A stretch of DNA of 64,000 bases from an uncultured Verrucomicrobiaceae bacterium (lineage in GTDB: Bacteria > Pseudomonadota > Gammaproteobacteria > Pseudomonadales > CAMLJR01): NCBI GenBank assembly GCA_964386045.1, contig CAYLRA010000011.1, positions 7,311-71,310 of the forward strand. Reading direction: 5' to 3'. Position numbers and translations under genes: made by a program. Under the pieces are notes generated by a model that was not told where the DNA came from, searched no databases, and saw only the letters and a program-made list of their open reading frames with translations. This document shows positions 33,952-51,846 of the stretch, in pieces (the stretch's first letter is position 1; each line of letters begins with the position of its first letter).

Positions 33952-33980
33952 TTGACAGCAACGTCGTCATCCCAAAGACT
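33952..33980 (+). promoter_or_regulatory. candidate sigma-70 promoter for the riboswitch-led transcript
   Basis: TTGACA at 33952-33957, a 17-nt spacer, then AAGACT at 33975-33980, about 10 nt before the riboswitch P1 stem. The -10 element is weak. Confidence 0.35.
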
Positions 33981-33989
33981 TGCCGCCGC

Positions 33990-34188
33990 TTCAGAAGGTG
34001 CCCGCCGATCTTTCGGTCGGTGGGTGAAACGGGAAGTCCGGTGACGCGCGAGGTTTTACTACCTCCGCCACTCCGGCGCAGCCCCCGCTGCTGTAAGCCT
34101 GACGAGACTGTTCGACCGCCACTGTGGAAACACGGGAAGGCAAGGGACAGTCGAGGATGACGGCGAGCCAGAAGACCGGCCTTCTGAA
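33990..34188 (+). promoter_or_regulatory. cobalamin (B12) riboswitch
   Basis: P1 pairing TTCAGAAGG (33990-33998) with CCTTCTGAA (34180-34188). Conserved core strings are GGTGAAACGGGAAGTCCGGTGA, GCCCCCGCTGCTGTAAG and GCCACTG...GGGAAGGC. The B12 box is GAGCCAGAAGACCGGCC. A ~250-nt expression platform precedes the receptor ATG. Confidence 0.9.
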
Positions 34189-34438
34189 CGAAATGATGGT
34201 GCGAAATCCGGGGTGTGGTTTCGTTCGTCGGCTGGATTTTCGATAAGTGTTCGCAGCGTCAGGCGAGATGGATAGCCATGTCCATCGCCGTGCGTTTGCA
34301 TGACTGTTGCCGAAATTTTCTGACCTGCGAATCCCTGCCTCGACCCGGCCACATGGAGTGGCATGGGTGTTCGTGCCATTGCCTTTTTTCGATTTGTCGC
34401 CGGGTGGGCGCGGTCGGTAGTTGCAGGGGTTTTGGCAA

Positions 34439-36550: not shown

Positions 36551-36564
36551 GCGGTCGTGTCGTG

Positions 36565-38124
36565 ATGAAACTGCGCTGGAAACGCTGGCTCTACCTGTCG
36601 CACCGCTGGTTTGGCATAGCGCTGTGCCTGCTGTTCGTGGCGTGGTTCGTCAGCGGCATCGTCATGATGTACGTCGGCTTTCCGCAACTCGATCGTGACG
36701 AGCGGCTGACCGGGTTGCCGGCGCTCGACTTCTCGTCGGCGCGGCTGTCGCCGGTCGAGGCGGTGGCGAGATTGCGCGATGCCGATTTCTCTGTCGTCGG
36801 CGCGCCCGAACGCAACCTGCCGCGCGACGGCGTCGGCGACACGGTGTCGCCGACGGTGGTGCGGCTCGGCATGTTGCAGGGGCGCCCGGTCTATCACCTG
36901 CATCTCGGCGGCGCTATTCAGCCGCGCACGGTATTTGCCGACGATGGCGAACTGTTGCAGCGGGTGACGTTGGCGATGGCGCTGCAGACGGCGGTCGATT
37001 TCGCGCAGCGGCAGCGCGGTATGGCCTTCGCCGACGCGCGTCATGCGGAGCTGCTGCAGACCGATCAGTGGACGCTGTCGGCGGCGATGAACATTCACCG
37101 CCCGCTGCATCGCGTCGAACTCGGCGATGCGCATGGCAGTGAGCTCTACGTCTCGTCGACCACCGGCGAAGTGGTGCGCGACACCGCGCGCAGCGAGCGC
37201 TTGCTGAACTATGTCGGTGCGGTGACACACTGGATCTATCCGACGGTGATTCGGCGTCATCCGGAGCTATGGGCCTGGCTGGTCGATATTCTGGCTGCCG
37301 CTGGCGTGGTGCTCGCGCTGACCGGATTGTGGATCGGAGTGCTGCGCTGGAAGCGTCGGCCGAAGCCGGGAAAGCCGGCGGTTCCCTATCGTGGGCTGAT
37401 GCGGTGGCACTACTTCAGCGGGATTGTGTTTGGTGGCTTCGCATTGACCTGGGTTTTCAGCGGCTGGTTGTCGATGAATCCCGGGGGGTTGAATCCATCT
37501 CGGGCGGTCAGTGCACAAGAACGATCGGCGCTCAGTGGTGTACCGACGATATTGCGGGTAGCTGATTTCGTGCAACCGGTGCCGGTGTTCGATGGGCAGA
37601 CGGTTGAGGCGGAGTTGCTGCATGTCGATGGGGTCGCGGCTTATCTGATGTCGCGGCGCGATGGTTCTCGCCAGCTGGTTTCGGCGAATGATGGCAGTCT
37701 ATTCACTGTCGACCTGCCGAGACTGCGAGCATTGCTGCCGGCGCTGATGCCTCAGTCGACACTGAATCAGGTGCAGCTGCTGACAGGTTATGACAACTAC
37801 TATTACAGCCGTCATCCAGAGCGTGGTGACAAGCCACTTCCCACACTGCGTGCGATGTTTGCCGATGACGCCGCAACTTGGTTTCACGTTGATGTGGCGA
37901 CCGGACAGTTACTGGATCGCAGTACTGCCACCAATCGTCTCTATCGTTGGCTCTACAACGGCCTTCACTCGTGGGATATCTATTGGTTATGGCAGCGGCG
38001 GCCGCTGTGGGATATTGCCCTGATCAGCTTTTCGTTGGGAGGGGTATTGTTGTCGGGGCTTGGCGTTGTGGTTGGGTGGCGGCGACTTGGCGATGGACGC
38101 AGGCGGGGTCGTGCCAGAGTCTGA
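36565..38124 (+). CDS. PepSY-associated TM-helix protein (PiuB/iron-regulated membrane protein family)
   Basis: KRWLYLSHRWFGIALCLLFVAWFVSGIVMMY is the typical N-terminus. Further TM helices follow, including LYNGLHSWDI... 519 aa. Starts 15 nt after the receptor stop. Confidence 0.8.
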   Translation: MKLRWKRWLYLSHRWFGIALCLLFVAWFVSGIVMMYVGFPQLDRDERLTGLPALDFSSARLSPVEAVARLRDADFSVVGAPERNLPRDGVGDTVSPTVVRLGMLQGRPVYHLHLGGAIQPRTVFADDGELLQRVTLAMALQTAVDFAQRQRGMAFADARHAELLQTDQWTLSAAMNIHRPLHRVELGDAHGSELYVSSTTGEVVRDTARSERLLNYVGAVTHWIYPTVIRRHPELWAWLVDILAAAGVVLALTGLWIGVLRWKRRPKPGKPAVPYRGLMRWHYFSGIVFGGFALTWVFSGWLSMNPGGLNPSRAVSAQERSALSGVPTILRVADFVQPVPVFDGQTVEAELLHVDGVAAYLMSRRDGSRQLVSANDGSLFTVDLPRLRALLPALMPQSTLNQVQLLTGYDNYYYSRHPERGDKPLPTLRAMFADDAATWFHVDVATGQLLDRSTATNRLYRWLYNGLHSWDIYWLWQRRPLWDIALISFSLGGVLLSGLGVVVGWRRLGDGRRRGRARV

Positions 38125-38180: not shown

Positions 38181-38888
38181 TCAGCCAGCGCTGTGGATAC
38201 CGCGGCGCACCGCCTGTTGCAGCTGGCTCAGCGTGACGCTGCGGGCGATCGACTGGCTTTTGCGAATGTGGTCGATCATCGCCTTGCGCGCACGCCGTAC
38301 ATTGCCTGCCTGAATCAGCAGGCAGAGTTCGTGGTGCTCTTCGTAGGTTTCCACCACCGCCTGCCGGTCGGGAAAGCCGAGCCGCCGCAGGATGCGGATG
38401 TGGTGGTTGATGTCGCGCAGGTAGTCGGCCAGCACCGGGTTGCCGCTGCCGACCGCGATGCTGATGTGGAAGGCCTCCTCCAGCGTCTTGATCTCATCCA
38501 TGTTGACGCTTTTCCTGACGCGCGCCGGGTTCCATAACTCGGTCAGTGCGTCCAGCGCTTCGCGATTCATCTGCCTGCAGGCGCGTTCGATCGCCTCGGC
38601 CTCCAGGCAGACGCGCACGTCGTAAAACTGCGTGATTCGCTCGATGTCGACCGGCCGCACGAAGCAGCCCTGCTTCGGCAGGATGGTGATATGCCCCTCG
38701 ACCTCCAGCCGCTGCAACGCCGCGCGCACCGGTGTGCGGCTGACGTTGAATTCGGTCGCCAGCTCCGATTCGGTGACGCGGGTGCCGGGGTAGAGTTCGA
38801 ATTCGAGAATCTTGCGGCGCAGCTGTTCGTAGATCTTCTGCGAGGAGAACTGGCTTTTCTGCAATGCATTTTCTCCAGAGATAGCCAC
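38181..38888 (-). CDS. GntR-family (FadR/FCD subfamily) transcriptional regulator
   Basis: Winged HTH ESELATEFNVSRTPVRAALQRLEVEGHI, then an all-helical FCD-like C-terminal domain. 235 aa. Confidence 0.88.
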   Translation of the reverse strand: MAISGENALQKSQFSSQKIYEQLRRKILEFELYPGTRVTESELATEFNVSRTPVRAALQRLEVEGHITILPKQGCFVRPVDIERITQFYDVRVCLEAEAIERACRQMNREALDALTELWNPARVRKSVNMDEIKTLEEAFHISIAVGSGNPVLADYLRDINHHIRILRRLGFPDRQAVVETYEEHHELCLLIQAGNVRRARKAMIDHIRKSQSIARSVTLSQLQQAVRRGIHSAG

Positions 38889-39097
38889 ATCTGAATTTAC
38901 CTTGGCACGTTAGTGCAGGCTCCGGGTCGTGTAAAGCGCCTCACGGTTGTGGTGCGCACTGCGCTGTTTGCGGGCGCAATGACATCTGCCCCCTTTAATA
39001 TCGTTCCTCTCGCTTCCCGGCACTTTTCCCAACCTGTTGTTTTTCAATCCCGTCGCCGAGCTCGGCATGTCTCGGCATGGATGATGCTTTATACCCA

Positions 39098-39113
39098 TCG
39101 TTGTATACAACGA
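39098..39113. promoter_or_regulatory. perfect 16-bp palindrome TCGTTGTATACAACGA, candidate GntR operator
   Basis: Its core TTGTATACAA fits the GntR/FadR-type (t)nGT-n-AC(a) palindrome rule. It lies in the divergent region between the GntR gene and the tsx-like gene. Confidence 0.6.
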
Positions 39114-39192
39114 CAAATACAAAGTGGTGCTCGCGGCGATGAGTGCGCGGCGACATCGAATGATGGCGACAGCTTCAAACAAGGGGATGGCG

Positions 39193-39993
39193 ATGGAGGC
39201 ACGGGAGAAAGGGCTGCTTCAGCAGCGTTGTGGCGGCGCGGTCAAGGGCGGCGTAATCAACATGTTCGGCCTGCCACTGATGGCGTTAATGCTGCCGATG
39301 GCGGCACAGGCCGGTAGTGCGCAGTGGAGTTCGACCAATATCCAGTATTTGCATGGCACGAACTATGAATTGGGTGACGACACGCGCTCGATCGTCACCC
39401 TTGAGCACGCCAACGGCTGGAAGTATGGCGACAATTTCTTCTTCGTTGACATTACCAATCCGGATCGCGACGGGGAGAACACCGGCACCGAGTTCTACGG
39501 CGAGATCTCGCCGCGACTCAGTTTCAGCAAGATCAGCGGTCGCGACCTGTCGTTCGGCATCGTGCAGGATTTCCTGATCACGACCACGGTCGAGATCGGC
39601 GACGCCGGCTCCGGCTTCCACAACTATCTGTACGGTCTGGCGGTCGACCTGAAACTGCCGGGCTTCGCCTTCTTCCAGGTCAACTGGTACGTGCGCAACG
39701 AGGTGACGGCGGGCACCGATCTCGGCCAGCAGGTGACGCTGGTGTGGCTGGTGCCGTTTTCGATCGGCCCGGTCGACTTCGCCTTCGAAGGCTTTCTCGA
39801 TTACGCCTATGGCAACGATCCGTCCGAGGACAACCTGCTGACGGCGCCGCGCCTGCTGGTCGATGTCGGCAAGTTCTTCGGTGCGCCGGGTGCGCTGCAG
39901 GCCGGTGTCGAATACCAGATCTGGCGCAACAAGTTCGGTATAGACGGTATTGACGAAGATGTGGCGCAACTGATGGTGAAGTGGGTCTGGTAG
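39193..39993 (+). CDS. Tsx/OmpK-family outer-membrane nucleoside-type channel
   Basis: FYGEISPRLSFSKISGRDLSFGIVQDF aligns by eye with E. coli Tsx [27 protein letters not shown]. Signal peptide ...LMALMLPMAAQA, aromatic C-terminus ...VKWVW. The start could be 39187, 39193 or 39262. Confidence 0.75.
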   Translation: MEAREKGLLQQRCGGAVKGGVINMFGLPLMALMLPMAAQAGSAQWSSTNIQYLHGTNYELGDDTRSIVTLEHANGWKYGDNFFFVDITNPDRDGENTGTEFYGEISPRLSFSKISGRDLSFGIVQDFLITTTVEIGDAGSGFHNYLYGLAVDLKLPGFAFFQVNWYVRNEVTAGTDLGQQVTLVWLVPFSIGPVDFAFEGFLDYAYGNDPSEDNLLTAPRLLVDVGKFFGAPGALQAGVEYQIWRNKFGIDGIDEDVAQLMVKWVW

Positions 39994-40023
39994 CTGCCGG
40001 TCAGTTTTTTCGAGGAGGAGAAC

Positions 40024-40695
40024 ATGGCTGCGATCACGCTGGCGGCGGAACCCGCCGCAATCGATCTCGATCTGGCGCGCACTGCGCTGCTGATCATCGA
40101 CATGCAGCGCGACTTCGTGTTGCCCGGCGGTTTTGGCGAAACGCTGGGAAACGATGTGTCGTTGTTGCGCAGTGCGATCGGGCCATGTGCGCAGGTGCTG
40201 GCTGCGGCGCGCGCGCTGAGGATGGCGGTGATCCATACCCGCGAGGGCCACCGTCCCGATCTCGGCGATGCGCCGCCGGCGAAACTGCAGCGAGGCGTGC
40301 CGAGTAAACGTATCGGCGATTTCGGTCCGATGGGGCGCATCCTGATTCGCGGTGAGCCGGGGCACGACATCATCCCCGAACTCTATCCGCTGGCGGACGA
40401 GCCGGTGGTCGACAAGCCGGGCAAGGGCTCCTTTTACGGCACCGATCTCGAACTGCTGCTGATCAATCGCCGTATCGAAAACCTGCTGGTCTGCGGCGTC
40501 ACCACCGAGGTGTGCGTGCACACGACGGTGCGCGAAGCCAACGATCGCGGCTACCGCTGCGTGGTACTTGGTGATTGCTGCGCCTCCTACTTCCCGGAGT
40601 TTCACCGTGTCGCGCTGCAGATGGTGTCGGCGCAGGGCGGCATTTTTGGCTGGGTATCGAGTTCGGAAAAGTTTCTCGCGGCAGTTGAATCCTGA
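40024..40695 (+). CDS. cysteine hydrolase (isochorismatase-like amidohydrolase) paralog 1
   Basis: D-K-C triad context: [33 protein letters not shown]. 223 aa. Confidence 0.82.
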   Translation: MAAITLAAEPAAIDLDLARTALLIIDMQRDFVLPGGFGETLGNDVSLLRSAIGPCAQVLAAARALRMAVIHTREGHRPDLGDAPPAKLQRGVPSKRIGDFGPMGRILIRGEPGHDIIPELYPLADEPVVDKPGKGSFYGTDLELLLINRRIENLLVCGVTTEVCVHTTVREANDRGYRCVVLGDCCASYFPEFHRVALQMVSAQGGIFGWVSSSEKFLAAVES

Positions 40696-40718
40696 ATCGT
40701 TTGAGAGGGGATCGGATC

Positions 40719-42302
40719 ATGAGTGGATCGGCACTGTTCAAGCCGCGGCTGTGGACGCCCGGCGACTGGAATGCCCTGTTCGGGTTTGGCACCAACATCC
40801 TGGTCAACCTGCTGGTGTTGACCGGTCTGCTGTTGTACGTGGTGAAGATGCCGGAGGAGATCGTGTTCGGTCGCATCCTGCCGGCGACCGGATTGATGCT
40901 GTTCCTCAGTACGGTCTACTACGCGTGGCTGGCCTATCGACTGGCGCAGAAGACCGGCCGCAGCGATGTCTGCGCGCTGCCGTCTGGTGTCAGCGTGCCG
41001 CATATGTTTGTCGTCACCTTCGTCATCATGTTGCCGATCTCCTTGTCGACCGGTGACCCGATTCGCGGTTGGGAAGCGGGGCTGACCTGGGTGTTCATCC
41101 AGAGTTTCGTGTTGATGATCGGCGCCTTCATTGCCCCCTGCATTCGCAGGATCACGCCGCGCGCCGCGCTGCTCGGCACGCTGGCCGGTGTCTCCGTCGC
41201 GTTCATCTCGCTGCGGCCGGCGCTGGAGATGTACATGACGCCGGTGATCGGCGTGGTCTGCTTCGCCATCATCCTGCTGAGCTGGTTTGGTGGCGTGCGT
41301 TATTTCAAGGGAGTTCCCGCCGGGCTGGTCGCCATCGCCGTCGGCACGCTGATCGCGTGGGGCAGCACGGCGATGGGGATTGGCATTGGTGGCATGAGCC
41401 TGGAGAAGGTGGCACAGGCGGTAACGAGTTTCGGATTCTCGGTGCCGGTGCCTGCGTTTGGTCACGTCTTCTCCGGCTTTGAGTTCCTCGGCATCATCCT
41501 CGTCACCGCGATTCCGTTCGGCATCTACGATCTGGTCGAGGCGATGGACAATGTCGAGAGTGCTGCCGTCGCCGGCGACAGTTTTCCGACCACGCGCGTG
41601 CTCTCTGCCGACGGTGTTGTCAGCCTGATCGGTTGCCTGATGGGCAATCCCTTCATCAATGCCGTCTATATCGGTCATCCGGGCTGGAAGGCGATGGGCG
41701 GGCGCATCGGTTATTCGGCGGCGACCGGCATCATCGTGTTGTTGTTGGCCTGGTTCGGTGTCATCGCGCTGATGAGTGCGTTGATTCCGGTGGTCGCCAT
41801 CTCGCCCATCCTGCTCTACATCGGCATGTTGATCGGCGCGCAGGCGTTCCAGGAGACGCCGAAGAGTCATGCGCCGGCGATCATTCTCGCGCTGATGCCG
41901 CACCTCGCTGCGTGGGGAAAACTGCAGATAGACAACGCACTGGGCGCGGCAGGCACCAGCGCGGCTGCGGTTGGCTTCGACAAGCTCGGTCAGACCGGTG
42001 TGTTGTATGAAGGGTTGGCGGTGTTGGGTGGCGGCGCAATTCTCGGCGGTCTGGTGCTGGGGGCGATCGCCGCGTTTGTCATCGAGCGGCAGTTGTGGCG
42101 TGCAGCGGCATTCGCGCTGGCCGGTGCCGCACTGACCTTCTTCGGTTTCATGCACGGCGAGCAGGTCGGTATTGCCGAGTCACCGATGGTGGCGCTGGCC
42201 TATCTGCTGGTGGCAGCGACACTGGCTGCCTGCGCGAAGTTCGTCAATGTCGACAGCCTGGCACCACTGCCGGTGCATGGCGAAGCCGAAGCGACGGCAT
42301 AG
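40719..42302 (+). CDS. divergent AzgA/NCS2-like nucleobase-type permease (527 aa)
   Basis: About 13 predicted hydrophobic segments. The region VESAAVAGD...[40 protein letters not shown] is collinear with the AzgA/AdeP core (...SVTGSFIGTSSVTAYIESSSGVSVGGRTGLTA). ATG at 40719. Confidence 0.7.
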
Positions 42303-42313
42303 GGAGAGCGGAG

Positions 42314-42994
42314 ATGACGCGTTATCTCGACAGCACACCCTACGCCTGGCCATTCGACGGCAATCTGCAGCCGGACAACACCGCGCTGATCATCATCGAC
42401 ATGCAGACCGATTTCTGCGGCGAGGGTGGTTACGTCGACAGCATGGGTTACGACATCGCACTGACGCGCGCGCCGATCGAACCGATCGGCCGCGTGTTGC
42501 AGCGATTGCGCGAACTCGGCTTCTTCATCATCCACACCCGCGAGGGGCACCGCCCCGATCTCGCCGACCTGCCGGCCAACAAACGCTGGCGCTCGCGCCA
42601 GATCGGCGCCGGCATCGGCGATGCCGGACCGTGCGGGCGCATTCTGGTCAGGGGCGAGCCGGGCTGGGAGATCATCCCGGAGCTGGCTCCGCTGCCGGGC
42701 GAGGTGATCATCGACAAGCCGGGCAAGGGCTCGTTCTGTGCCACCGACCTCGATCTGATCCTGCGCACGCAGGGCATTCGCAACCTGATCCTGACCGGCA
42801 TCACCACCGATGTCTGCGTGCATACGACGATGCGCGAGGGCAACGATCGCGGCTTTGAGTGTGTGCTGCTGGCCGATTGCTGCGCCGCCACCGATCAGGC
42901 GAACCACGCGGCGGCGCTACATATGATTCACATGCAGGGTGGCGTGTTCGGCGCGGTATCAAACTCGACGGCGTTGCTGTCGACACTGGAGTAA
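42314..42994 (+). CDS. cysteine hydrolase (isochorismatase-like amidohydrolase) paralog 2
   Basis: [33 protein letters not shown]. It shares the long block [10 protein letters not shown]...[17 protein letters not shown] with paralog 1. 226 aa. Confidence 0.82.
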
Positions 42995-43001
42995 CCGACT
43001 C

Positions 43002-43352
43002 ATGGCGAGCGAGCTGCTGTTATGGCGCGACCTGTTGCGCCTCGATCCGGATGATCCGCATCTGGCATGGCAACCCTTTCGCGATGGCGTCGAGATGGTG
43101 CCGCTGCACAGTGTCGAGGGGCGCGGCGTCTGTTGTGCGTTGCTGCGGTATGCCGCCGGCGCATCGGTGCCGAGCCATACCCACACCGGGCTGGAGTATC
43201 TGCTGGTTCTGCGCGGCGATCAGCGCGACGATCGCGCCAGCTACACCGCCGGCGCCCTGCTGATCAACGAGCCGGGCTCGGTGCATCAGGTCAGCAGCGA
43301 TGGCGGTTGCATCGTACTGGCGATCTGGGAGGGGCCGGTGCGCTTCGATTGA
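43002..43352 (+). CDS. cupin-domain protein (ChrR-like cupin)
   Basis: YAAGASVPSHTHTGLEYLLVLRG...EPGSVHQV has the two-motif cupin metal-site pattern. 116 aa. Confidence 0.7.
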   Translation: MASELLLWRDLLRLDPDDPHLAWQPFRDGVEMVPLHSVEGRGVCCALLRYAAGASVPSHTHTGLEYLLVLRGDQRDDRASYTAGALLINEPGSVHQVSSDGGCIVLAIWEGPVRFD

Positions 43353-43397: not shown

Positions 43398-44864
43398 TCA
43401 GTAGACATCCCGACGATAGCGACCCTGTTCGGTCAGCTGTTCCACGCGCTCCTCGCCCAGCAGTTCGTTCAGCACCGTGTGCACCGCTGGCGCCATGCCC
43501 TGCAGGCTGCCGCAGACATAGATCGCAGCGCCATCGTCGACCCATTGCTGCAGGGCTTTGCCGGCTTCGCGCAGGCGTTGCTGCACGTAGGCAGAATCTT
43601 CGTCGCGAGAGAAGGCGAGATCGACGCGGGTGAGGTGACCGCTTTGTTGCCACTGCTCGATTTCTTCGCGAAAGAAGTAGTCGTGCGCCGCGCTGCGCTC
43701 GCCGAACAGCAACCAGTTGTTGTGCTGGCCGCGCTGTTCGCGCGCCTGCAGCAGTGCGCGCAGGCCGGCGATGCCGGTGCCGTTGCCAATCAGGATCAGC
43801 GGGCAGTCGCTCGCCGGGGGATGGAAGTTGGCGTTGCTGCGCACGCGCAGGTCGACTTCGTCGCCGATGGCTGCGATGGCGGTCAGATAACCGGAGCCGA
43901 GGCCGAGGCTGCCGTCGGGGTGCCGATGCTGTCGTACTAACAGTTCAACTCTACCGCTCGCCCTCAGCGATGCGATGGAGTATTCGCGGTGCGGCAGCGG
44001 TGCGAGTGTATCCGTCGTCCTGCTTTCCCGACGCGGGCCGATCTCGGCGATGTCGCCGGCTTCCCAGGCGGCGTCGCCATCGAGCGGTTCCAGTGCGATG
44101 AAAAAGGCGGGCGCGCCGGCGCTGCCGGAATTTACGCAGCGGCGCGTGACGAGTCGCCAGCGGCCATAACCCGGGGCCTGCCAATCGGCCAGATCGGTGC
44201 GACCGCCGAGCAGGCCGAGATGGTGTTGCCAGTGACGCAGCGCGCCGCCGTCGCCGTTGTCGACTTCTACGGGGTCGAACAGCGGTTCGGCGCCCTGTGT
44301 CCGCAGCCAGTGGCCGAGACTTCGACCGAAACCGCAGTAGTCGCGGTAGCTGCTGTCGCCGAGTGACAGCAGACCGAACTGCAGCCGGTGCAGATCGGGT
44401 GCCTGCGTCATGACACGCCGCGCGAATGCGGCGGCCTGGTCGGGCGGGTCGCCCTCACCGTAGGTGCTGACGATGAACAGCGCGCGCTGGCAGTCGCGCA
44501 GCGTGTCGCCATCCAGCGCCGCCAGCGGCAGTAATCGCACCGGCAGTTGTGCCTGTTGCAACGCTTCGGCACTTTGCCAGGCGAGGCGTTCGGCGGTGCC
44601 GGTCTGGCTGGCGTAAGCGATCAACAGTGGCGCGGTATCGCCGCGGTCGCCTTTCATCAATGCCTGCACCGCATCGCGTTCACGCTGTTGTCGATGTCGG
44701 TGGCGCAGCCAGATCACACCGCAAAAGGCGAGATAGCCGGCGGTGGCGGTCGCCGCGCCGGTGTGGCGCAGGGCGGTATCGCTCAGAGCGAGCGCCGCCG
44801 GGCTGGTTGCAAGCAGCGGCAGCGCCAGCAGGCGCGATGCAAATTCGAGGAGTGCGGAGGGCAT
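43398..44864 (-). CDS. membrane-anchored flavodoxin/FAD/NAD(P)H oxidoreductase (CysJ/PiuB C-terminal-like)
   Basis: Two N-terminal hydrophobic segments. FMN motif LIAYASQTGTAE, FAD motif HREYSIAS, NAD(P)H motif LIGNGTGIAGLRA, C-terminal ...RYRRDVY. 488 aa. Confidence 0.85.
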   Translation of the reverse strand: MPSALLEFASRLLALPLLATSPAALALSDTALRHTGAATATAGYLAFCGVIWLRHRHRQQRERDAVQALMKGDRGDTAPLLIAYASQTGTAERLAWQSAEALQQAQLPVRLLPLAALDGDTLRDCQRALFIVSTYGEGDPPDQAAAFARRVMTQAPDLHRLQFGLLSLGDSSYRDYCGFGRSLGHWLRTQGAEPLFDPVEVDNGDGGALRHWQHHLGLLGGRTDLADWQAPGYGRWRLVTRRCVNSGSAGAPAFFIALEPLDGDAAWEAGDIAEIGPRRESRTTDTLAPLPHREYSIASLRASGRVELLVRQHRHPDGSLGLGSGYLTAIAAIGDEVDLRVRSNANFHPPASDCPLILIGNGTGIAGLRALLQAREQRGQHNNWLLFGERSAAHDYFFREEIEQWQQSGHLTRVDLAFSRDEDSAYVQQRLREAGKALQQWVDDGAAIYVCGSLQGMAPAVHTVLNELLGEERVEQLTEQGRYRRDVY

Positions 44865-44909
44865 GGCGGAGGTGAGTGTGCGCCGCCGGTCTCCCGGCGG
44901 CGCAGCCCG

Positions 44910-45731
44910 TTACTGCGGCAGCACTTCAAACGTCGCGACGTAGCTGCCGCGCCGCTGGGTCGCCGGCTTCTGCGCCTTGTCGTCCTGGTACTGCGCTTCC
45001 AGGAAATACTGGCCGGCGGTCGGCCAGGTGATGGCGAAACGCCCCTGCCTGTCGGCGACCGCCTCGATCGCCTGCTGGCCGTCGCGGTAGCGCATCCCGG
45101 CCGGCAGCACGGTGACCTTGGCGCCGACGGCGGGCTGGCCGTCGATCAGCAGCGCGAAGGTGGCGGCCTCGCCGGCGAACAGGTCGTTGGGGTGGGTGAC
45201 CGGTGCCAGTTCGAGCCCCTGGCCGGTCGGCTTCAGCACGGCGTCGCTCGGGTTGCCGGCGGTGACGAAGGTCTCCAGCCGCCGCGACGACTGCGTGACG
45301 CGCAGGTTATCGGCCTTCTTCGGCACGGCCTTGTCGAAGCCCTCCTGGGTGAACGGCGTGCCGCGCTGCGGCCACATCTTGCGCTGGCCATTCTCTTCCC
45401 ACATGGCGTTCAGGCCGCTGCTGGCGGAGAAGACCTTGTAGGTGCCTTTCTGCGGCAGTTGCAGGTCGAAGGTGCTGCGGTGCTTGCCGGAGGCCGCGTT
45501 CTGCAACGGCACCTCCTTGCCGTCCGGCCCCACCGCCTTGACGCCTTCGAGGCGCATGGCGTGGTGGTCGGGGTGGAAGATGTCGTTGGAGATGGCGGCG
45601 TCGAAGGTGACCCACGGCTCGTCGCTGGAGAGCACGGTGGCGGCCGGCACGATCCAGGCGCGGTGCGCGTGGGCGGCGAACGGCAGGGTGAGCGCCAGTG
45701 CGATGGCGGCGGGTTTGACGAAACGTTTCAT
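44910..45731 (-). CDS. DUF4198-family periplasmic protein
   Basis: Signal peptide MKRFVKPAAIALALTLPFAAHA, then HRAWIVPAATVLSSDEPWVTFDAAISNDIF, typical of DUF4198. 273 aa. The rest of track ORF 44910..46388 is an upstream artefact. Confidence 0.75.
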   Translation of the reverse strand: MKRFVKPAAIALALTLPFAAHAHRAWIVPAATVLSSDEPWVTFDAAISNDIFHPDHHAMRLEGVKAVGPDGKEVPLQNAASGKHRSTFDLQLPQKGTYKVFSASSGLNAMWEENGQRKMWPQRGTPFTQEGFDKAVPKKADNLRVTQSSRRLETFVTAGNPSDAVLKPTGQGLELAPVTHPNDLFAGEAATFALLIDGQPAVGAKVTVLPAGMRYRDGQQAIEAVADRQGRFAITWPTAGQYFLEAQYQDDKAQKPATQRRGSYVATFEVLPQ

Positions 45732-45784
45732 GGACGGACTCCTGGTGTGGGGTGTCGTGTGTGGCCGGCGCGAATCGCGGCGGC

Positions 45785-46315
45785 TCAGGGTTTCAGTTCG
45801 ACGGTGATGGCGCCGAGCTCGCTGCTGCCTTTGCCCTCCAGCTTCTGCGGTGCCTTCGGCGGCCACTGGAACGGGATCTCGACCAGCTCGCGACCACCGA
45901 CCTCGCGCGCCGCCTCGACCAGCAATCGGTAGCTGCCGGCGGGCAGGTCGCCGAGCGGTGCCTTGCCACTGCTGAACGAGACGGTGTGGCTGCCCGGCGC
46001 GCGGGTGGCGCCGCTGACGCCGTCGATCGGCAGGTCGAGTTCGCGGCCGCTGCGGCGCCACCACTGGCGCATGTCCTTCAGCCACTTCTCGCCCTCGTCG
46101 TTCTTCATCTTCACGTCGTACCAGATGGCGAGGTTGGCGGCGACGCTGCGGTCCTCGCGCTCGATCCAGATCGCGGTGTAGGGGCGGTGGTACTCCGCCA
46201 CCTGCAGGCGCGGAATCTCCACCGTCACCGAAAGCTCGGTGGCCTGCGCCGGCAGCGCCAGTGACAGGCCGAGCAGCGGTGCGGCAAGGGCGGTGAAGCG
46301 GAAGGTACTGGTCAT
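45785..46315 (-). CDS. DUF2271-family periplasmic protein with an SGAT flavinylation-type motif
   Basis: Signal peptide MTSTFRFTALAAPLLGLSLALPAQA. AEYHRPYTAIWIE matches the DUF2271 hallmark as I remember it. DGVSGAT is at residues 98-104 (nt 46004-46024). 176 aa. Confidence 0.75.
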   Translation of the reverse strand: MTSTFRFTALAAPLLGLSLALPAQATELSVTVEIPRLQVAEYHRPYTAIWIEREDRSVAANLAIWYDVKMKNDEGEKWLKDMRQWWRRSGRELDLPIDGVSGATRAPGSHTVSFSSGKAPLGDLPAGSYRLLVEAAREVGGRELVEIPFQWPPKAPQKLEGKGSSELGAITVELKP

Positions 46316-46341
46316 GGTGTTCCCCCGGTCGTGTGAAAAGG

Positions 46342-46983
46342 TCAGGCGTGAATGAAAAGCAGTGCCAGCAGCAGCGGCGCCAGCACACCGAGGCCGACCA
46401 CCGGCCAGGTGGCGGGGCGGTGGCCGCCGTGCAGCTGCAGCAGCACCAGCCCGGTCAGGCAGAACACCAGGCAGGCACCGGCGAAGATGTCGAGGAACCA
46501 GCTCCAGGCGGTGCCGGTGTTGCGCCCCTTGTGCAGGTCGTTGAGGTAGGAAACCCAGCCACGATCGGTGCGCTCGAACAGCACCTCGCCGCTGTCGCGG
46601 TCGATGCTGAGCCAGGCATCGCCGCCGGGGCGCGGCAGCGGCAGGTAGATCTCGCCGTCGGACCACTCCGCCACCCGGCTGCCGACGTCGACCGCCAGCG
46701 TCTCGCCAATCCAGTCGCGCAGTGCGGCGGGCAGCGCGGCCTCGCCGCTGTCGGCTTCGGCGCGCAGCGCGTCGAGCAGCGCGGCCGGCAGCGTGCCCTC
46801 GCGGCTCTCGATACGCGGCTTGGCCTCGATCTGCGCGGCATGGTTCAGCGTGATGCCGGTGATGGCGAACAGGATCATGCCGACCAGACAGAGGGCCGAG
46901 CTGATCCAGTGCCACTGGTGCAGCGTTTTCAGCCAGTAACCGCGGCGGGCGGCATCGGAGGGAGCGTGAGAGGTATCGGGCAT
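46342..46983 (-). CDS. short PepSY-associated TM-helix protein
   Basis: RGYWLKTLHQWHWISSALCLVGMILFAITGITLNH..., a central periplasmic segment, then LNDLHKGRNTG..WSWFLDIFAGACLVFCLTGLVL. 213 aa from the ATG at 46983. Confidence 0.75.
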   Translation of the reverse strand: MPDTSHAPSDAARRGYWLKTLHQWHWISSALCLVGMILFAITGITLNHAAQIEAKPRIESREGTLPAALLDALRAEADSGEAALPAALRDWIGETLAVDVGSRVAEWSDGEIYLPLPRPGGDAWLSIDRDSGEVLFERTDRGWVSYLNDLHKGRNTGTAWSWFLDIFAGACLVFCLTGLVLLQLHGGHRPATWPVVGLGVLAPLLLALLFIHA

Positions 46984-47093
46984 GGAAGTCGGGCGGGAAG
47001 ATGTCAGGTGCGCTACTCCATCACGAGTGAGAATGAGTCGCAATAAGTGATTGGTGCTTTCCCACTTTTTCCATAGTTTGGTGACTCCGAAGG

Positions 47094-47121
47094 TCGACGG
47101 GCAGCCATGCGGCTGCCCGTC
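47094..47121 (-). other. perfect 12-bp stem-loop just downstream of the receptor stop codon (intra-operon hairpin)
   Basis: CGACGGGCAGCC-atgc-GGCTGCCCGTCG. No U-tract follows on the coding (minus) strand. Confidence 0.6.
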
Positions 47122-47130
47122 GATCGATCG

Positions 47131-49563
47131 TCAGAACTGCACGTTGACGCTCATCCAGAAGCTGCGGGCCGCATCCTTGTTGTTGTAGTCGTCGAAGTAG
47201 AGAATCTCGTTGGTGCTGCTGCCATAGACACCATCACCATCCAGATCGCGGAACTCGGTCCGGTAGGTGGTGAAGTCCTTGTCCAGCAGGTTGTTGACCC
47301 GGCCGTTGATCTTGATGTTATCGGTCAGCTGGTAGCCGATGCCGAGGTGGAGCACCTCGTAGTCCTTGTAGTACAGCGCCTCGTCGGTCAGCGTGTGCTG
47401 GCCGCGATAGCGCCTGGAGCGGGCCTCCATGGTCAGGAACAGGTTCAACGGCTCCAGCACCTGCCAGTCCAGCGTCACGTTGGCCATGTGCTTGGCGCTG
47501 TTGCCGAGCGGCTGGCCCTTGTTGGCACCGCTCTTCTGCTCGCTGTCGGTGTAGGTGTAGTTGGCGCGCAATGCCCAGTTGTCGAGGAACTGCCAGCGAC
47601 CGGCCAGCTCCACGCCGTCGATCACCACTTCGTCGATATTGACCGTCCGGTTGCTCGACGAGTAGCCGAGGTCGGCGAACTCCCCACTGCTGGCGCAGGC
47701 AAGGGCCGTACCGCCGCCGCAGGGTTGCGAGGCGATCTTGTCCTCGAACTCGTTGCGGAACACGGTGGCGTTGAAGTTGTGGCCGTTCGGGTGCTGCCAG
47801 TAGACGGCTGCCTCGGTGGTGACGCTGGTTTCCGGCTCCAGGTCGGGGTTGCCGAACATCGGCGAGGTGCCCTGGCTGCCGAAGCCGGTGATGCCGTCGT
47901 AGAGCTGGGTGGTCTTCGGCGTCTTGTAGCCGGTGCTGACACCGCCCTTGACCGTCCACTGCGCGTTGACGGTGTAGACGCCATACAGGCGCGGGCTCAG
48001 CTGTTCGCCGAACACCTCGTGGTCGTCATGGCGCAGGCCGAAGGTGATGGCCAGCGGCTCGATGACATACCAGGTGTCCTCGGCGAACAGCGACCACATG
48101 TTGTGTTCCTGTACCTGACCGGGGGTGCCCTCTTCCATGCCGAACACGCCGTCTTCCAGTTCGCCCCGGATCACCTGGGTGCCGACCACCAGAATGTGCT
48201 GTCCTGCCAGTTCGAACGGCATGTCCAGCTTGGCGTCCAGCGTGTACTGGTTGCTCTCCATGGTGCGCTTGGGGCGTGGCAGGAAGGTCGACTCGGCCAG
48301 TGCCTTGCGCTCGTCGGTGGTCATGCCGGCATAGGCGCCGGTGCCGTCGAACATGGCCAGCAGGTGTTCGCGCTCGGCCACGGTGAAGGGCAGGGTACGG
48401 CCTTCGTTGTTGGTCTCGACATAGGCCAGCGAGACGAAGCTGTTGCCGAAATCCCAGGTACCGTCGTGGGTCAGCGCCCAGCTGTCGCGGGTGAACTCCT
48501 GGGTGGGGGCGTAGCCCGCGCGCGGGTTGGCGCGGCGCGACCAGGTGCCGCCATTGCCGGTGCAGGCGCCGGCATTGTTGCCGGCGGCGCCCAGACAGAA
48601 GTTGCCCGCTGTCCAGATGGCGTCGATGTTGTCCACCGTGCCGACCGGGTACTCCAGCACGCCGGCGTCGTTGGTCTTGATCTTGTTGTCGTACTCCTGT
48701 TTCGACGTATCCCAGTCCAGCGTCACGGTCTGGTTCCCGGTCGGTGTCCAGACCAGGCTGATACCGCCGGCGACATTGGTGTTGTCGACGGTCTTGCCGC
48801 CGCCGCCGAAACTCATGGGGCGGATATGCGCGGCGCCGGCCGGATCGGTGATGGGGGCGTAGGTCGGGTTGGAGGCGTCGCTCTCGTAGCGGCTGCCGCG
48901 CAGCGTCAGGTTCAGCAGGCCGGGTACCAGCGGGCCGGAGAGGAAGGCGTCCAGCGTGTTGTCGTCACCGAAGGCGTCGTCCGACTGCGCGGTGTAGCCG
49001 GCGGTGATCGAGGCGCTCCACTTCTCTGCATTCTTCTTGGTGATGATGTTGATGACACCGCCCATGGCATCGGCGCCATACAGCGTCGAGGCGGGGCCGC
49101 GGATCACTTCGATGCGCTCGATCGCATCCAGCGGCGGGATGTGGTTGAACTGGTTGCCGCCAAAGCTGTTCGGATAGATGTCGCCGTGGTTGCTCTGGCG
49201 TTTGCCGTCCACCAGGATCAGCGTGTAGTCGGAGCCCATGCCACGCAGGGAGATGGTGCCCTGGCCGGTCTTGTCGCGGGTTTCGCCGACATCCACCCCC
49301 TCCAGGTCGCGCACCGCGTCCAGCAGCGTCGTGTAGGGGCGCTTGCTCAGCTCCTTCTGTTCGATGACCGAGATACTGGCCGGTGCGTCGACCAGCTTCT
49401 GCTCGAAACCGGCGGCGCTGACCACCTTGACCGGTTCCAGCGTGACCGTCGCCGCGTCGTCCGCCGCCGCCGGCGCGGCGAGCAGGATCTGGGAGAGCAG
49501 GGCGGCGGATGTGGCGGCGACCAGCGGGCGCACGCGGTGTGCCTGGGCAAAGATAAGAGTCAT
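47131..49563 (-). CDS. TonB-dependent receptor (CirA/catecholate-type architecture, no N-terminal signalling domain)
   Basis: Signal peptide, plug region DAPASISVIEQKELSKRPYTTLLDAVRDLEGVDV...ISLRGMGSDYTLILVDGKR, IEVIRGPASTLYGADAMGGVINIITKK, C-terminal ...SFWMSVNVQF. 810 aa. RBS GAGGAAG. Confidence 0.92.
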   Translation of the reverse strand: MTLIFAQAHRVRPLVAATSAALLSQILLAAPAAADDAATVTLEPVKVVSAAGFEQKLVDAPASISVIEQKELSKRPYTTLLDAVRDLEGVDVGETRDKTGQGTISLRGMGSDYTLILVDGKRQSNHGDIYPNSFGGNQFNHIPPLDAIERIEVIRGPASTLYGADAMGGVINIITKKNAEKWSASITAGYTAQSDDAFGDDNTLDAFLSGPLVPGLLNLTLRGSRYESDASNPTYAPITDPAGAAHIRPMSFGGGGKTVDNTNVAGGISLVWTPTGNQTVTLDWDTSKQEYDNKIKTNDAGVLEYPVGTVDNIDAIWTAGNFCLGAAGNNAGACTGNGGTWSRRANPRAGYAPTQEFTRDSWALTHDGTWDFGNSFVSLAYVETNNEGRTLPFTVAEREHLLAMFDGTGAYAGMTTDERKALAESTFLPRPKRTMESNQYTLDAKLDMPFELAGQHILVVGTQVIRGELEDGVFGMEEGTPGQVQEHNMWSLFAEDTWYVIEPLAITFGLRHDDHEVFGEQLSPRLYGVYTVNAQWTVKGGVSTGYKTPKTTQLYDGITGFGSQGTSPMFGNPDLEPETSVTTEAAVYWQHPNGHNFNATVFRNEFEDKIASQPCGGGTALACASSGEFADLGYSSSNRTVNIDEVVIDGVELAGRWQFLDNWALRANYTYTDSEQKSGANKGQPLGNSAKHMANVTLDWQVLEPLNLFLTMEARSRRYRGQHTLTDEALYYKDYEVLHLGIGYQLTDNIKINGRVNNLLDKDFTTYRTEFRDLDGDGVYGSSTNEILYFDDYNNKDAARSFWMSVNVQF

Positions 49564-49664
49564 TACTACTTCCTCTTGATAATAGTTCTCGTTTGTAACA
49601 GAGAGGAAGACGAACCACCCGAAGAAACCCGTAACGCGCCGGGAAAAAAGTGGTCGCCCCGGGT

Positions 49665-50240
49665 TCAGCGCTCCAGCCGTGCGCGCAGATGATCCAGGGC
49701 GCGCGCCGTCTGTTTTTCCACTGTGCTCAGCGAGACGCCCAGTTCGCGCGCGATCTGCGGGTGGGTTACGCCGTGCAGGCGTGAGGACTGAAAGATGCGC
49801 TGCGTCTGCGGCGGCAGCTCCGCCAGCGCCCGCGCCAGCAGCTCCAGCTCCTGCCGTGCAGCGACCACGCTGTCGAGCTCGGGGCTTTCGCCGGTCACTT
49901 CGTACAGGTAGGCGAGGCTTTCATCCAGCACCGAGCGCCTCCCGTGAATGCGCTGGTGGTCGATGGCCAGATTGCGGGCGATGCGGAAGATGAACGCGCG
50001 CAGGTCGTCGATCGGCTGGCCCGCGTGCGCGACCAGGCGCAGGTAGGTCTCCTGGACGAGATCCGCGGCGGTCTGGGTGCAGTGCAGCTGCCCGCGCAGG
50101 AACTGGCGCACCTCCAGCGCGTGGGTGCGGAAGGCGTTGTTCAACTGTTCGGCGCTCAAGGAGGAGGTGTTGGCCACGGCAGAGGGTTCGGCAACGGGTG
50201 TTCGACAACCTGGGAGGTCTGGAAGGACCTTTAGATACAC
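49665..50240 (-). CDS. ECF-type sigma-70 family factor (iron-starvation type); start codon uncertain
   Basis: Region 2 DLVQETYLRLV...FIFRIARNLAIDHQR and region 4 RIFQSSRLHGVTHPQIARELGVSLSTVEKQ. The ATG at 50240 lies only 6 nt from the Fur box, so a downstream start such as GTG at 50177 is possible. Confidence 0.82.
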   Translation of the reverse strand: MYLKVLPDLPGCRTPVAEPSAVANTSSLSAEQLNNAFRTHALEVRQFLRGQLHCTQTAADLVQETYLRLVAHAGQPIDDLRAFIFRIARNLAIDHQRIHGRRSVLDESLAYLYEVTGESPELDSVVAARQELELLARALAELPPQTQRIFQSSRLHGVTHPQIARELGVSLSTVEKQTARALDHLRARLER

Positions 50241-50245
50241 GAAGC

Positions 50246-50264
50246 ACTAATGATAATCAATATT
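50246..50264. promoter_or_regulatory. Fur box
   Basis: ACTAATGATAATCAATATT matches the 19-mer consensus GATAATGATAATCATTATC at 15 of 19 positions. It sits in the only AT-rich patch nearby, immediately upstream of the ECF sigma gene. Confidence 0.75.
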
Positions 50265-50310
50265 ATTATTAAAAGTGGCTGCCAAATTGGGTGTGGGCGG
50301 TGGACAGGGG

Positions 50311-50338
50311 CAAAAAAAAGCCGCCTTTCGGCGGCGTC
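50311..50338 (-). terminator. rho-independent terminator of the 50417-50698 gene
   Basis: On the minus strand, GCCGCC-gaaa-GGCGGC is followed by TTTTTTTT. Confidence 0.8.
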
Positions 50339-50416: not shown

Positions 50417-50698
50417 TTAGAAACGCTTGTTGAAACCAATTCCGGCGCCGACGACGCCCCACACCAGCGAGCGCCCTTCAGTCCGGTTGCCGCTGTCGCC
50501 GAAACTGGCGGTCGGCGTGTCGCCGCGTTGCTCGCCAAAGCTGCGCTGCGCAACCTGCAGTGGTTCGCGGGTGCGGTTTGGCAGAATGACGATCGATTGC
50601 AGCGAAATGATGTTGCGTTCGCGGGGGCGCTCGGGTTCGCCGAGGCAGAAGTCGCTGCCGGTCAGCAGCACAGTGGCGATCAGCATCTGTTTCAGCAT
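50417..50698 (-). CDS. hypothetical small exported protein (93 aa)
   Basis: Hydrophobic N-terminus MLKQMLIATVLLTGSDFC, C-terminal ...GAGIGFNKRF, its own terminator. No family recognised. Confidence 0.45.
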   Translation of the reverse strand: MLKQMLIATVLLTGSDFCLGEPERPRERNIISLQSIVILPNRTREPLQVAQRSFGEQRGDTPTASFGDSGNRTEGRSLVWGVVGAGIGFNKRF

Positions 50699-51759: not shown

Positions 51760-51846
51760 TGGTGCCCGGGGTCGGACTCGAACCGACATGTTGTCACCAA
51801 CGGCGGATTTTGAATCCGCTGCGTCTACCGATTTCGCCACCCGGGC
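51760..51846 (-). tRNA. tRNA-Leu (anticodon CAA)
   Basis: Minus-strand sequence GCCCGGGTGGCGAAATCGGTAGACGCAGCGGATTCAAAATCCGCCGTTGGTGACAACATGTCGGTTCGAGTCCGACCCCGGGCACCA. It has a 7-bp acceptor stem, anticodon loop TTCAAAA, a long variable arm, TTCGAGTCC T-loop and encoded CCA. Confidence 0.95.

Follow-up and report, generated by a model that had tools for sequence, protein, structure and literature searches.

Gene Content and Boundaries of the Cluster

We analyzed a 64-kb stretch (64,000 nt) of contig CAYLRA010000011.1, referred to here as the window, which holds a cluster of six genes encoding an extracytoplasmic function (ECF) sigma factor, a TonB-dependent receptor (TBDR), a PepSY_TM_like_2 membrane protein, a DUF2271 protein, a DUF4198 protein, and a flavodoxin/FNR reductase. 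Genes were taken from the listing of open reading frames (ORFs) together with inspection of start codons, and protein families were assigned with Pfam. As set out below, the locus probably serves Fur-controlled reductive iron acquisition and combines two joined modules: the sigma factor, its promoter and the receptor on one side, and a four-gene PepSY-like core on the other.

All six genes are on the minus strand. The sigma gene (49665-50177; the longest ORF reaches 50240) matched Sigma70_r2, Sigma70_r4_2, and Sigma70_ECF, and the receptor gene (47131-49563) encodes a Plug and a TonB beta-barrel. Behind them lie the genes for the PepSY_TM_like_2 protein (46342-46983; PF16357, E 8.2e-87, and PF03929, E 4.3e-10, both above the gathering score), the DUF2271 protein (45785-46315; PF10029, E 2.8e-50), the DUF4198 protein (44910-45731; PF10670, E 6e-56), and the diflavin reductase (43398-44864; Flavodoxin_1, E 1.7e-24; NAD_binding_1, E 1.1e-11). 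The Pfam E-values for the six proteins ranged from 1e-11 to 1e-87, every one above the gathering threshold. From sigma factor to reductase, the genes are separated by spacers of 101, 147, 26, 53, and 45 bp. An earlier note on this DNA had described six minus-strand genes with short spacers and had proposed a profile search as a check on its family calls; that search upheld the call for every protein, and the spacers are indeed short (26-147 bp).

The upstream boundary of the cluster is marked by a hairpin followed by a T-run at 50320-50335, the terminator of the preceding small gene. Downstream, the cluster meets convergent plus-strand genes for an isochorismatase family protein and a ChrR-type cupin. 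Within the cluster, a GC-rich hairpin, GGGCAGCC-GCAT-GGCTGCCC, was read from the minus-strand sequence at 47099-47118, right after the receptor stop codon and without a T-run; it may act as an intercistronic attenuator or stabilizer. Terminator-like matches within the DUF4198 and PepSY genes were discarded: they lie inside coding sequence, have poor T-tails and, with seven found against 4.5 expected, were attributed to chance.

Conservation of the Four-Gene Core

Used as the query of a genome scan, the DUF2271 protein retrieved 80 loci of alpha-, beta-, and gammaproteobacterial origin. In every one of them, tblastn with the six window proteins showed the PepSY, DUF2271, and DUF4198 genes side by side and in one constant order; the neighborhood survey suggested in the earlier note did find a recurrent core in all three proteobacterial classes. 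Over a wider set of 81 loci, the order PepSY, DUF2271, DUF4198, (ApbE), reductase is conserved. The reductase gene was detected downstream in 66 of 81 loci, 65 of them with it in the same orientation. Most related loci have a gap of ~1.1 kb between the DUF4198 and reductase genes, which encodes ApbE; two ApbE proteins from related loci, used as tblastn queries, matched 58 of the 80 loci at this position. The exceptions include 16 gamma-type loci (from Pseudomonas, Stutzerimonas, Azotobacter, Cellvibrionaceae, and others) in which the reductase gene directly follows the DUF4198 gene, as it does in the window. A TBDR gene is immediately upstream of the PepSY gene in 12 of these 16 loci and in L081, a close relative of the window described below. 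Judged by its gene order, the window locus belongs to this gamma-type sub-arrangement, with a receptor upstream and no apbE, which is also found in Stutzerimonas, Pseudomonas, and Cellvibrionales loci. The source organism is a gammaproteobacterium resembling the Cellvibrionales: the window DUF4198 was closest to Cellvibrio and Porticoccaceae proteins, and the window Tgt was 81-82% identical to the Tgt of Porticoccus and Microbulbifer.

The PepSY protein, at 213 aa, has three transmembrane (TM) helices and one periplasmic alpha/beta domain (residues 57-140); in the AlphaFold2 (AF2) model (pLDDT 87.8), the helices span residues 10-44, 158-186, and 192-212. In alignments with the locus proteins and database homologues, His25, His151, and His212 were conserved at 98-100% and His48 and His185 at 88%. 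By the positive-inside rule, His25 and His185 are placed at cytoplasmic helix ends and His48, His151, and His212 at periplasmic ends. By analogy with FoxB, this pattern is expected to fit two stacked bis-His hemes. FoxB (PDB 7ABW) and HiuB are di-heme PepSY reductases, and they share with the window an inner-membrane PepSY-family protein encoded beside a siderophore receptor, conserved His in TM helices, and a proposed reductive release of iron in the periplasm. FoxB differs in that it is a larger PepSY_TM protein and its operon supplies no NAD(P)H reductase or flavoprotein as a dedicated partner. Sequence searches of the PDB with the PepSY and DUF2271 proteins gave nothing meaningful.

The DUF2271 protein has a Sec signal peptide, read from the sequence, with the predicted cleavage site ALPAQA|TE, and the ApbE flavinylation motif D98-G-V-S-G-A-T104. 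D98, G99, and T104 were invariant in 82 sequences, including those of all clusters without apbE, and His43 of the EYHRPY motif was likewise invariant. Flavinylation of DUF2271 by ApbE at the Thr of an [S/T]GA[S/T] motif has been established experimentally, the demonstration of covalent flavin being limited to the DUF2271 of Amantichitinum, co-expressed together with its own ApbE (PMC8238504).

In the DUF4198 protein, the Sec signal peptide read from the sequence (FAAHA|HR) places His23 at the start of the mature protein. This residue was conserved at 100%, His56 at 98%, and His180 at 91%. The AF2 model (pLDDT 86.7) matched structures of Zcp in a Foldseek search (E 6e-15, TM-score 0.6-0.7). Two members of this family were characterized in 2025: Zcp of Neisseria gonorrhoeae, a periplasmic homodimer that binds Zn via three His, as well as Cu, Co, and Ni (PMC12663993), and IsDUF4198 of Ideonella sakaiensis, which binds Ni via its mature N-terminal His and a second His (PMC12537917). 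The window protein has in common with Zcp (PDB 9MHI-9MHO) and IsDUF4198 the Pfam family, the fold, the periplasmic location, and the mature N-terminal His. It differs in its low identity (~17-20%), in the conservation of H56 and H180 instead of the Zcp ligand H142, in being linked to Fur, and in always being paired with DUF2271; for IsDUF4198 His18, it has no obvious counterpart. Given the conserved mature N-terminal His and the behavior of Zcp and IsDUF4198, the window protein most likely binds a metal ion itself, via His23 and His56/His180, rather than a chelate. The suggestion in the earlier note that DUF4198 delivers an Fe(III) chelate found no support, as characterized members bind bare metal ions via His.

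The reductase starts with N-terminal hydrophobic segments followed by RHRHRQQRER, and its sequence shows the FMN motif YASQTGTAE, the FAD motif REYS (RxYS), the NADPH motif GNGTGIA, and a C-terminal DVY. The flavodoxin, FAD-binding, and NAD(P)H-binding domains of the CysJ/CPR class could all be recognized, with no separate Pfam match to FAD_binding_1. CysJ was its top relative in both the PDB and NCBIfam, over residues 284-488; no score reached the cysJ equivalog cut-offs, so the protein is distinct from CysJ itself. Homologues across alpha-, beta-, and gammaproteobacteria keep an N-terminal TM helix (residues ~36-55; 44700-44760) with a conserved (A/G)YxxFC followed by an Arg-rich stretch, which together place the catalytic domains in the cytoplasm. 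The (A/G)YxxFC anchor may be where the PepSY protein docks. It is unusual for a TM helix to contain a conserved Cys and Tyr. We also considered the His of the helix sequence 'RHTG' as a heme ligand that would complete a FoxB-like four-helix bundle and rejected it, as this His is not conserved in 66 homologues.

A direct partnership of the PepSY protein and the reductase is supported by a natural fusion: in locus L054, a TBDR gene adjoins that of an 840-aa protein with the architecture PepSY_TM+Flavodoxin+NAD_binding, whose reductase part is 45% identical to that of the window. This locus bears out the statement in the earlier note that PiuB-type proteins unite both parts in one polypeptide. 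PiuA/PiuB-type loci such as L054 resemble the window in having a catecholate-type receptor beside a PepSY membrane part and a CysJ-like reductase, whereas in the window the membrane and reductase parts are encoded by separate genes, the PepSY protein is the short three-helix PF16357 type, and DUF2271 and DUF4198 are added. In its proposed operation, the window locus resembles a PiuB that has been split and supplemented with a periplasmic flavoprotein and a metal-binding protein. Taken over the whole core, the membrane and periplasmic placements proposed earlier hold.

The Regulatory Module and the Receptor

A Fur-box-like operator, the AT-rich sequence AATAATAATATTGATTATCATTAGT, is located 5' of the sigma gene at 50246-50270 on the minus strand. 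Compared to the 19-bp Fur consensus of E. coli, GATAATGATAATCATTATC, overlapping 19-mers in this stretch matched at 14-15 of 19 positions, in two registers and on both strands. It is the sole site in the window with at least 14 of 19 matches, against a mean of 0.11 in shuffled windows; no site in the 64 kb had three or fewer mismatches to the E. coli consensus, the best having four. The position of this single strong match confirms that a Fur box and an ECF sigma gene stand at the head of the cluster, as had been noted before. A candidate second Fur site in the 5' leader of the receptor gene matched at only 12 of 19 positions in the window (by hand count) and 13 of 19 in L081, and we do not claim it. 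The segment 50162-51072 (~900 bp, corresponding to only ~160 bp in L081) holds the Fur box and the strong terminator hairpin, as well as a 93-aa ORF on the minus strand (50417-50698) without a family match.

The sigma factor is 170 aa long when started at the GTG codon at 50177. Its best NCBIfam matches were FecI-type models, all under the equivalog cut-offs. A scan with this protein identified one close relative, in L081 (84% identical), and 23 loci with relatives at 51-57% identity (L082-L104), nearly all labeled Pseudomonas. In those of the 23 loci where a downstream receptor was detected, the gap between the sigma and receptor genes has the size of a fecR gene.

Comparison with L081 accounts for the much shorter spacer in the window. 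L081 is a metagenome-assembled contig whose DNA is ~85% identical to the window and syntenic with it from queA through the reductase gene; its order is sigma factor, a 305-aa FecR (DUF4880+FecR+FecR_C), a receptor with STN, PepSY, DUF2271, DUF4198, and reductase. In the DNA alignment (window 49453-49659, L081 8516-9985), the window is without two L081 segments, namely the fecR gene and an in-frame STN stretch of the receptor gene; the two gaps are separate from each other, and the sigma gene and promoter are kept. Hence no fecR is present between the sigma and receptor genes, where the window has 101 bp only. The window receptor gave no Pfam match to STN, compared to E 3e-14 for its L081 orthologue, and in the alignment of the two receptors, the in-frame gap follows the signal peptide and precedes the TonB-box region.

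Ahead of the receptor gene, at 49608-49634 on the minus strand, lies the ECF-type promoter TTACGGGT-N14-CGTCT. The pattern ACGGKT-N14-CGTCT occurs once in the window, with 0.05 occurrences expected. Of the 24 loci with a close sigma homologue, 18 have a single copy of it, in the equivalent position, and the 86 other loci compared have none. In the comparison with L081, CGTTACGGGTT and TCGTCT stand out as conserved blocks, and the 14 nt that separate them have diverged. This distribution identifies ACGGGT-N14-CGTCT as a promoter specific to the sigma clade and kept upstream of the receptor gene.

Compared to the FecI-FecR-FecA signaling that is intact in L081, the window shares a FecI-like sigma factor, a clade-specific promoter before a TBDR gene, and Fur on top, but it lacks a FecR gene and a receptor STN, which makes signaling from receptor to sigma factor impossible. 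With these two defining features tested and absent, the locus is no longer a FecIR-type signaling system. On the comparative evidence, its ECF module is a degenerate cell-surface signaling unit that has lost FecR and the receptor STN, leaving an orphan sigma factor under Fur control, in the manner of PvdS. This degeneration had escaped the earlier description of the cluster. The resulting hierarchy is probably one in which Fur controls the sigma factor, which in turn activates the receptor gene and probably also the four genes downstream of it.

The best solved relative of the receptor was CirA (E 1.6e-89), followed by PiuA, PfeA, PirA, and FepA. NCBIfam models of catecholate receptors matched it as well, all below their equivalog cut-offs; for the CirA model NF007478, the score was 336 bits against a cut-off of 745, and the receptor is 810 aa long compared to the 663 positions of this model. 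On these scores, it is a CirA relative and not an orthologue, and its ligand is likely of the catecholate type. The L081 orthologue is 85% identical, and an exact-sequence lookup of the receptor in public assemblies returned no record. Two loops with Cys pairs, NFCLGAAGNNAGAC (residues ~320-345) and QPCGGGTALAC (~610-630), were seen in the translation and are probably disulfide-stapled extracellular loops specific to the receptor clade.

Relation to the Published PepSY-Like System

The definition of the 'PepSY-like system' is due to Meheust et al. in 2021, who suggested that it plays a part in the reduction and assimilation of iron outside the cytosol (PMC8238504). That survey counted 3,220 clusters, 2,833 of them with DUF2271 and 1,500 with DUF4198; there were 1,077 PepSY-like genes with an NAD-binding domain, and 231 clusters had a TonB receptor (PMC8238504). 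The window encodes both a PepSY-like protein (PF16357/PF03929) and a DUF2271 protein with S101-G-A-T104; apbE, which it lacks, is frequent in the clusters and not demanded by the published definition (PMC8238504).

One counterpart is the Caulobacter operon CC3059-CC3063 (CCNA_03155-03159), which encodes a 'transporter' (the PepSY protein), DUF2271, DUF4198, ApbE, and a sulfite-reductase flavoprotein (PMC3751524). Under iron limitation and in a fur mutant, the operon is derepressed 12-51-fold, and a promoter-lacZ fusion confirmed its dependence on Fur and iron (PMC3751524). Transposon insertions in the operon lower fitness in EDTA (PMC12004947), so that, for orthologues of the window genes, the checks of iron and fur regulation and of a mutant phenotype that had been proposed for this cluster are already in print. 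DUF2271/DUF4198 pairs adjoining TonB-dependent transporters (TBDTs) are also induced by iron limitation in Alteromonas (PMC7190382). The window shares with the Caulobacter operon a PF16357 PepSY protein, DUF2271 with [S/T]GA[S/T], DUF4198, and a CysJ-like flavoprotein in the same order, along with iron/Fur control and the proposed periplasmic reduction of Fe(III). It differs in having no apbE between the DUF4198 and reductase genes (as in 16 other gamma-type loci) and in the receptor and ECF sigma genes upstream, and Fur appears to act via the sigma factor, not directly on the PepSY promoter.

By gene content and order, therefore, the window locus is a new example of the published PepSY-like flavin-dependent system and not a new class. 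The earlier note had singled it out as the best candidate in the window for an undescribed system and knew of no characterized function for the DUF2271 and DUF4198 pair. This view has to be given up: the class dates from 2021, DUF2271 flavinylation has been shown, the Caulobacter operon is Fur-regulated with a transposon-sequencing phenotype, and DUF4198 was characterized in 2025.

Proposed Mechanism and Alternative Explanations

In the mechanism we favor, iron limitation would cause Fur to leave the operator at 50246-50270, and the sigma factor would be made. Having lost FecR and STN, it would act on ACGGGT-N14-CGTCT without ligand sensing and would transcribe the receptor gene and, in what is probably a single operon, the four genes that follow it. 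The receptor would bring a ferric chelate, probably of the catecholate type, into the periplasm. In the cytoplasm, the membrane-anchored flavodoxin/FNR reductase would oxidize NAD(P)H and pass electrons to the three-helix PepSY protein, whose His pairs at both membrane faces are expected to hold b-type hemes, as in FoxB. Electrons would then arrive at an FMN bound covalently to DUF2271 Thr104, to which it would be attached by an ApbE encoded elsewhere. The reduced flavin would turn Fe(III) into Fe(II), freeing the iron from its chelate; DUF4198 would bind the metal ion via His23 and His56/His180, either at the site of reduction or as an acceptor or chaperone of Fe(II), and an unlinked Fe(II) importer would finish uptake.

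The chain from NAD(P)H over the diflavin reductase and PepSY protein to DUF2271 had been put forward in the earlier note; it coincides with the published model (PMC8238504) and agrees with the conserved SGAT and the five conserved PepSY His. Analogous in function only are the eukaryotic NOX/FRE ferric reductases and bacterial MsrQ/YedZ, in which electrons pass from NAD(P)H to flavin, transmembrane hemes, and an acceptor outside the cytoplasm. Their membrane folds are unrelated to that of the window protein, and in the window the chain is divided among several polypeptides and would end in a periplasmic protein that carries a covalent flavin.

Several observations weigh against this mechanism. 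The electron-transfer and iron-reduction steps are deduced, for the whole cluster type as well as for the window. No Fe(II) transporter gene was found within the cluster, and neither the cluster nor the 64-kb window contained apbE (tblastn with the two ApbE queries, best E 1.6), so flavinylation must depend on a gene elsewhere; the absence of this usual fifth gene had been overlooked. An ApbE encoded elsewhere in the genome is nevertheless plausible, given the invariance of the target Thr. In Stutzerimonas stutzeri, NosR is served by an ApbE. FecI-type sigma factors sometimes require FecR for activity, and the orphan sigma factor might be weak or inactive. With a hairpin after the receptor gene, co-transcription is no more than probable. 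A Foldseek search of the PepSY model against the PDB, FoxB included, returned nothing at E<=0.001, and similarity to PiuB-type proteins in hhalign was weak (39-69% probability over 38-55 residues, centered on the LH motif and TM2), which leaves the conserved His as the only grounds for heme binding. As to the metal, the characterized DUF4198 proteins bind Zn, Ni, Co, and Cu, soaks of Zcp showed no Fe density (PMC12663993), and the Zcp ligand H142 aligns with Asn160 of the window protein.

These metal preferences (Zn for Zcp, Ni for IsDUF4198, and no Fe seen in Zcp) would also suit a four-gene core that serves another metal (Ni, Co, Zn, or Cu), with DUF4198 capturing the ion and the redox chain performing, for example, a Cu(II)/Cu(I) or Co(III)/Co(II) conversion. 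A TBDT and PepSY_TM pair is known for copper (CrtA), and a TBDR and PepSY_TM pair controlled by a cobalamin riboswitch lies in the same window. We nonetheless consider another metal unlikely in view of the Fur box at the head of the locus, the resemblance of the receptor to catecholate siderophore receptors above all others, and the Fur-repressed, iron-responsive expression of the orthologous Caulobacter operon; moreover, Asn160 means that the third Zn ligand of Zcp is not conserved. A second explanation, that the PepSY protein is an inner-membrane siderophore permease, with the DUF proteins binding or escorting the chelate and the reductase acting on it in the cytoplasm, agrees with the cytoplasmic location of the reductase domains and with earlier literature that read TBDT-adjacent PepSY_TM proteins as permeases (PMC7190382). 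Three TM helices are too few for a chelate channel, though, and the conservation of His at both membrane faces, the pairing with a periplasmic protein that is a proven flavinylation substrate, and the demonstration that FoxB is a heme-containing reductase make a permease very improbable.

The two modules could also be mere neighbors, the sigma factor and receptor forming one unit and the core an independent operon, for instance for a general supply of periplasmic reductant or for repair. In line with this, the core occurs without an adjacent receptor of the window kind in 58 of 80 loci, tblastn detected no homologue of the window sigma factor in any of the 80 DUF2271 loci, and between the receptor and PepSY genes lies a spacer of 147 bp that contains a hairpin. 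On the other hand, receptor and PepSY genes again stand side by side in the 12 gamma-type loci and L081, the 147-bp spacer showed neither a Fur box nor any other promoter-like site, and the Caulobacter core is itself Fur-regulated, so that the modules would share a regulon anyway. We therefore see little chance of a purely accidental arrangement. A more novel reading concerns the end of the chain: DUF2271 and DUF4198 may form a periplasmic metalloreductase of a kind yet to be demonstrated, in which the DUF2271 FMN would reduce metal at the N-terminal His site of DUF4198, the true catalytic or hand-off center, and the PepSY protein would be only a transmembrane wire. We put this forward tentatively, as less likely than not.

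Other Features of the Window

Outside the cluster, a cobalamin riboswitch (Rfam RF00174, 111 bits) at 33979-34198 on the plus strand directly precedes a FhuA/FoxA-like TBDR gene (34421-36550, plus strand), which by NCBIfam is not a BtuB orthologue. A gene for a 542-aa PepSY_TM protein (36496-38124, plus strand) overlaps the TBDR gene. The order riboswitch, TBDR, PepSY_TM is kept in L191 (from the same metagenome-assembled genome as L081) and in the Steroidobacter/Peristeroidobacter loci L192, L194, and L195. These genes may serve the uptake of a corrinoid or cobalt chelate with a reductive step. In the literature collection searched, no paper combined 'PepSY' with 'cobalamin riboswitch', and the system could be more novel than the six-gene cluster.

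The genes at 38181-43352 encode a GntR/FCD regulator, a Tsx-like channel, an isochorismatase, a permease, a second isochorismatase, and a ChrR-cupin, and they probably form a catabolic or uptake cluster. It includes a 533-aa multi-spanning membrane protein (40701-42302, plus strand) with high GC3 and no Pfam match at E<=1e-3. We considered the isochorismatase genes as EntB-like genes of siderophore biosynthesis and judged them unrelated: they are on the other strand, belong to the GntR/Tsx/permease cluster, and only the isochorismatase domain was detected in them. A tRNA gene (51763-51846, minus strand; Rfam, 58 bits) lies between the nitroreductase and queA genes. The contig that carries L081 and L191, CAZEVP010000055.1, is labeled 'uncultured Verrucomicrobiaceae bacterium', although it is syntenic with a window whose Tgt and DUF4198 are closest to Cellvibrionales; the label is probably a binning error.

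Significance

The PepSY-like operon is among the most strongly Fur-derepressed in Caulobacter, and the cluster type is widespread: besides the more than 3,000 clusters surveyed in 2021, a database search gave at least 7,973 protein clusters of the PepSY_TM_like_2 family. As the biochemistry of this cluster type has never been reconstituted, any tractable example is of some value. The window locus adds two points: the flavinylation site is fully conserved even in clusters without their own apbE, and a cell-surface signaling unit has been reduced, in a clean natural case, to a Fur-controlled orphan sigma factor that keeps its promoter. The remaining value lies in the biochemistry of the DUF2271-DUF4198 pair. 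If the pair does act as a metalloreductase, the window arrangement, without apbE and fecR, would also show that an ApbE from another part of the genome can serve the module and that a decapitated signaling sigma factor can persist as a simple Fur-driven amplifier.

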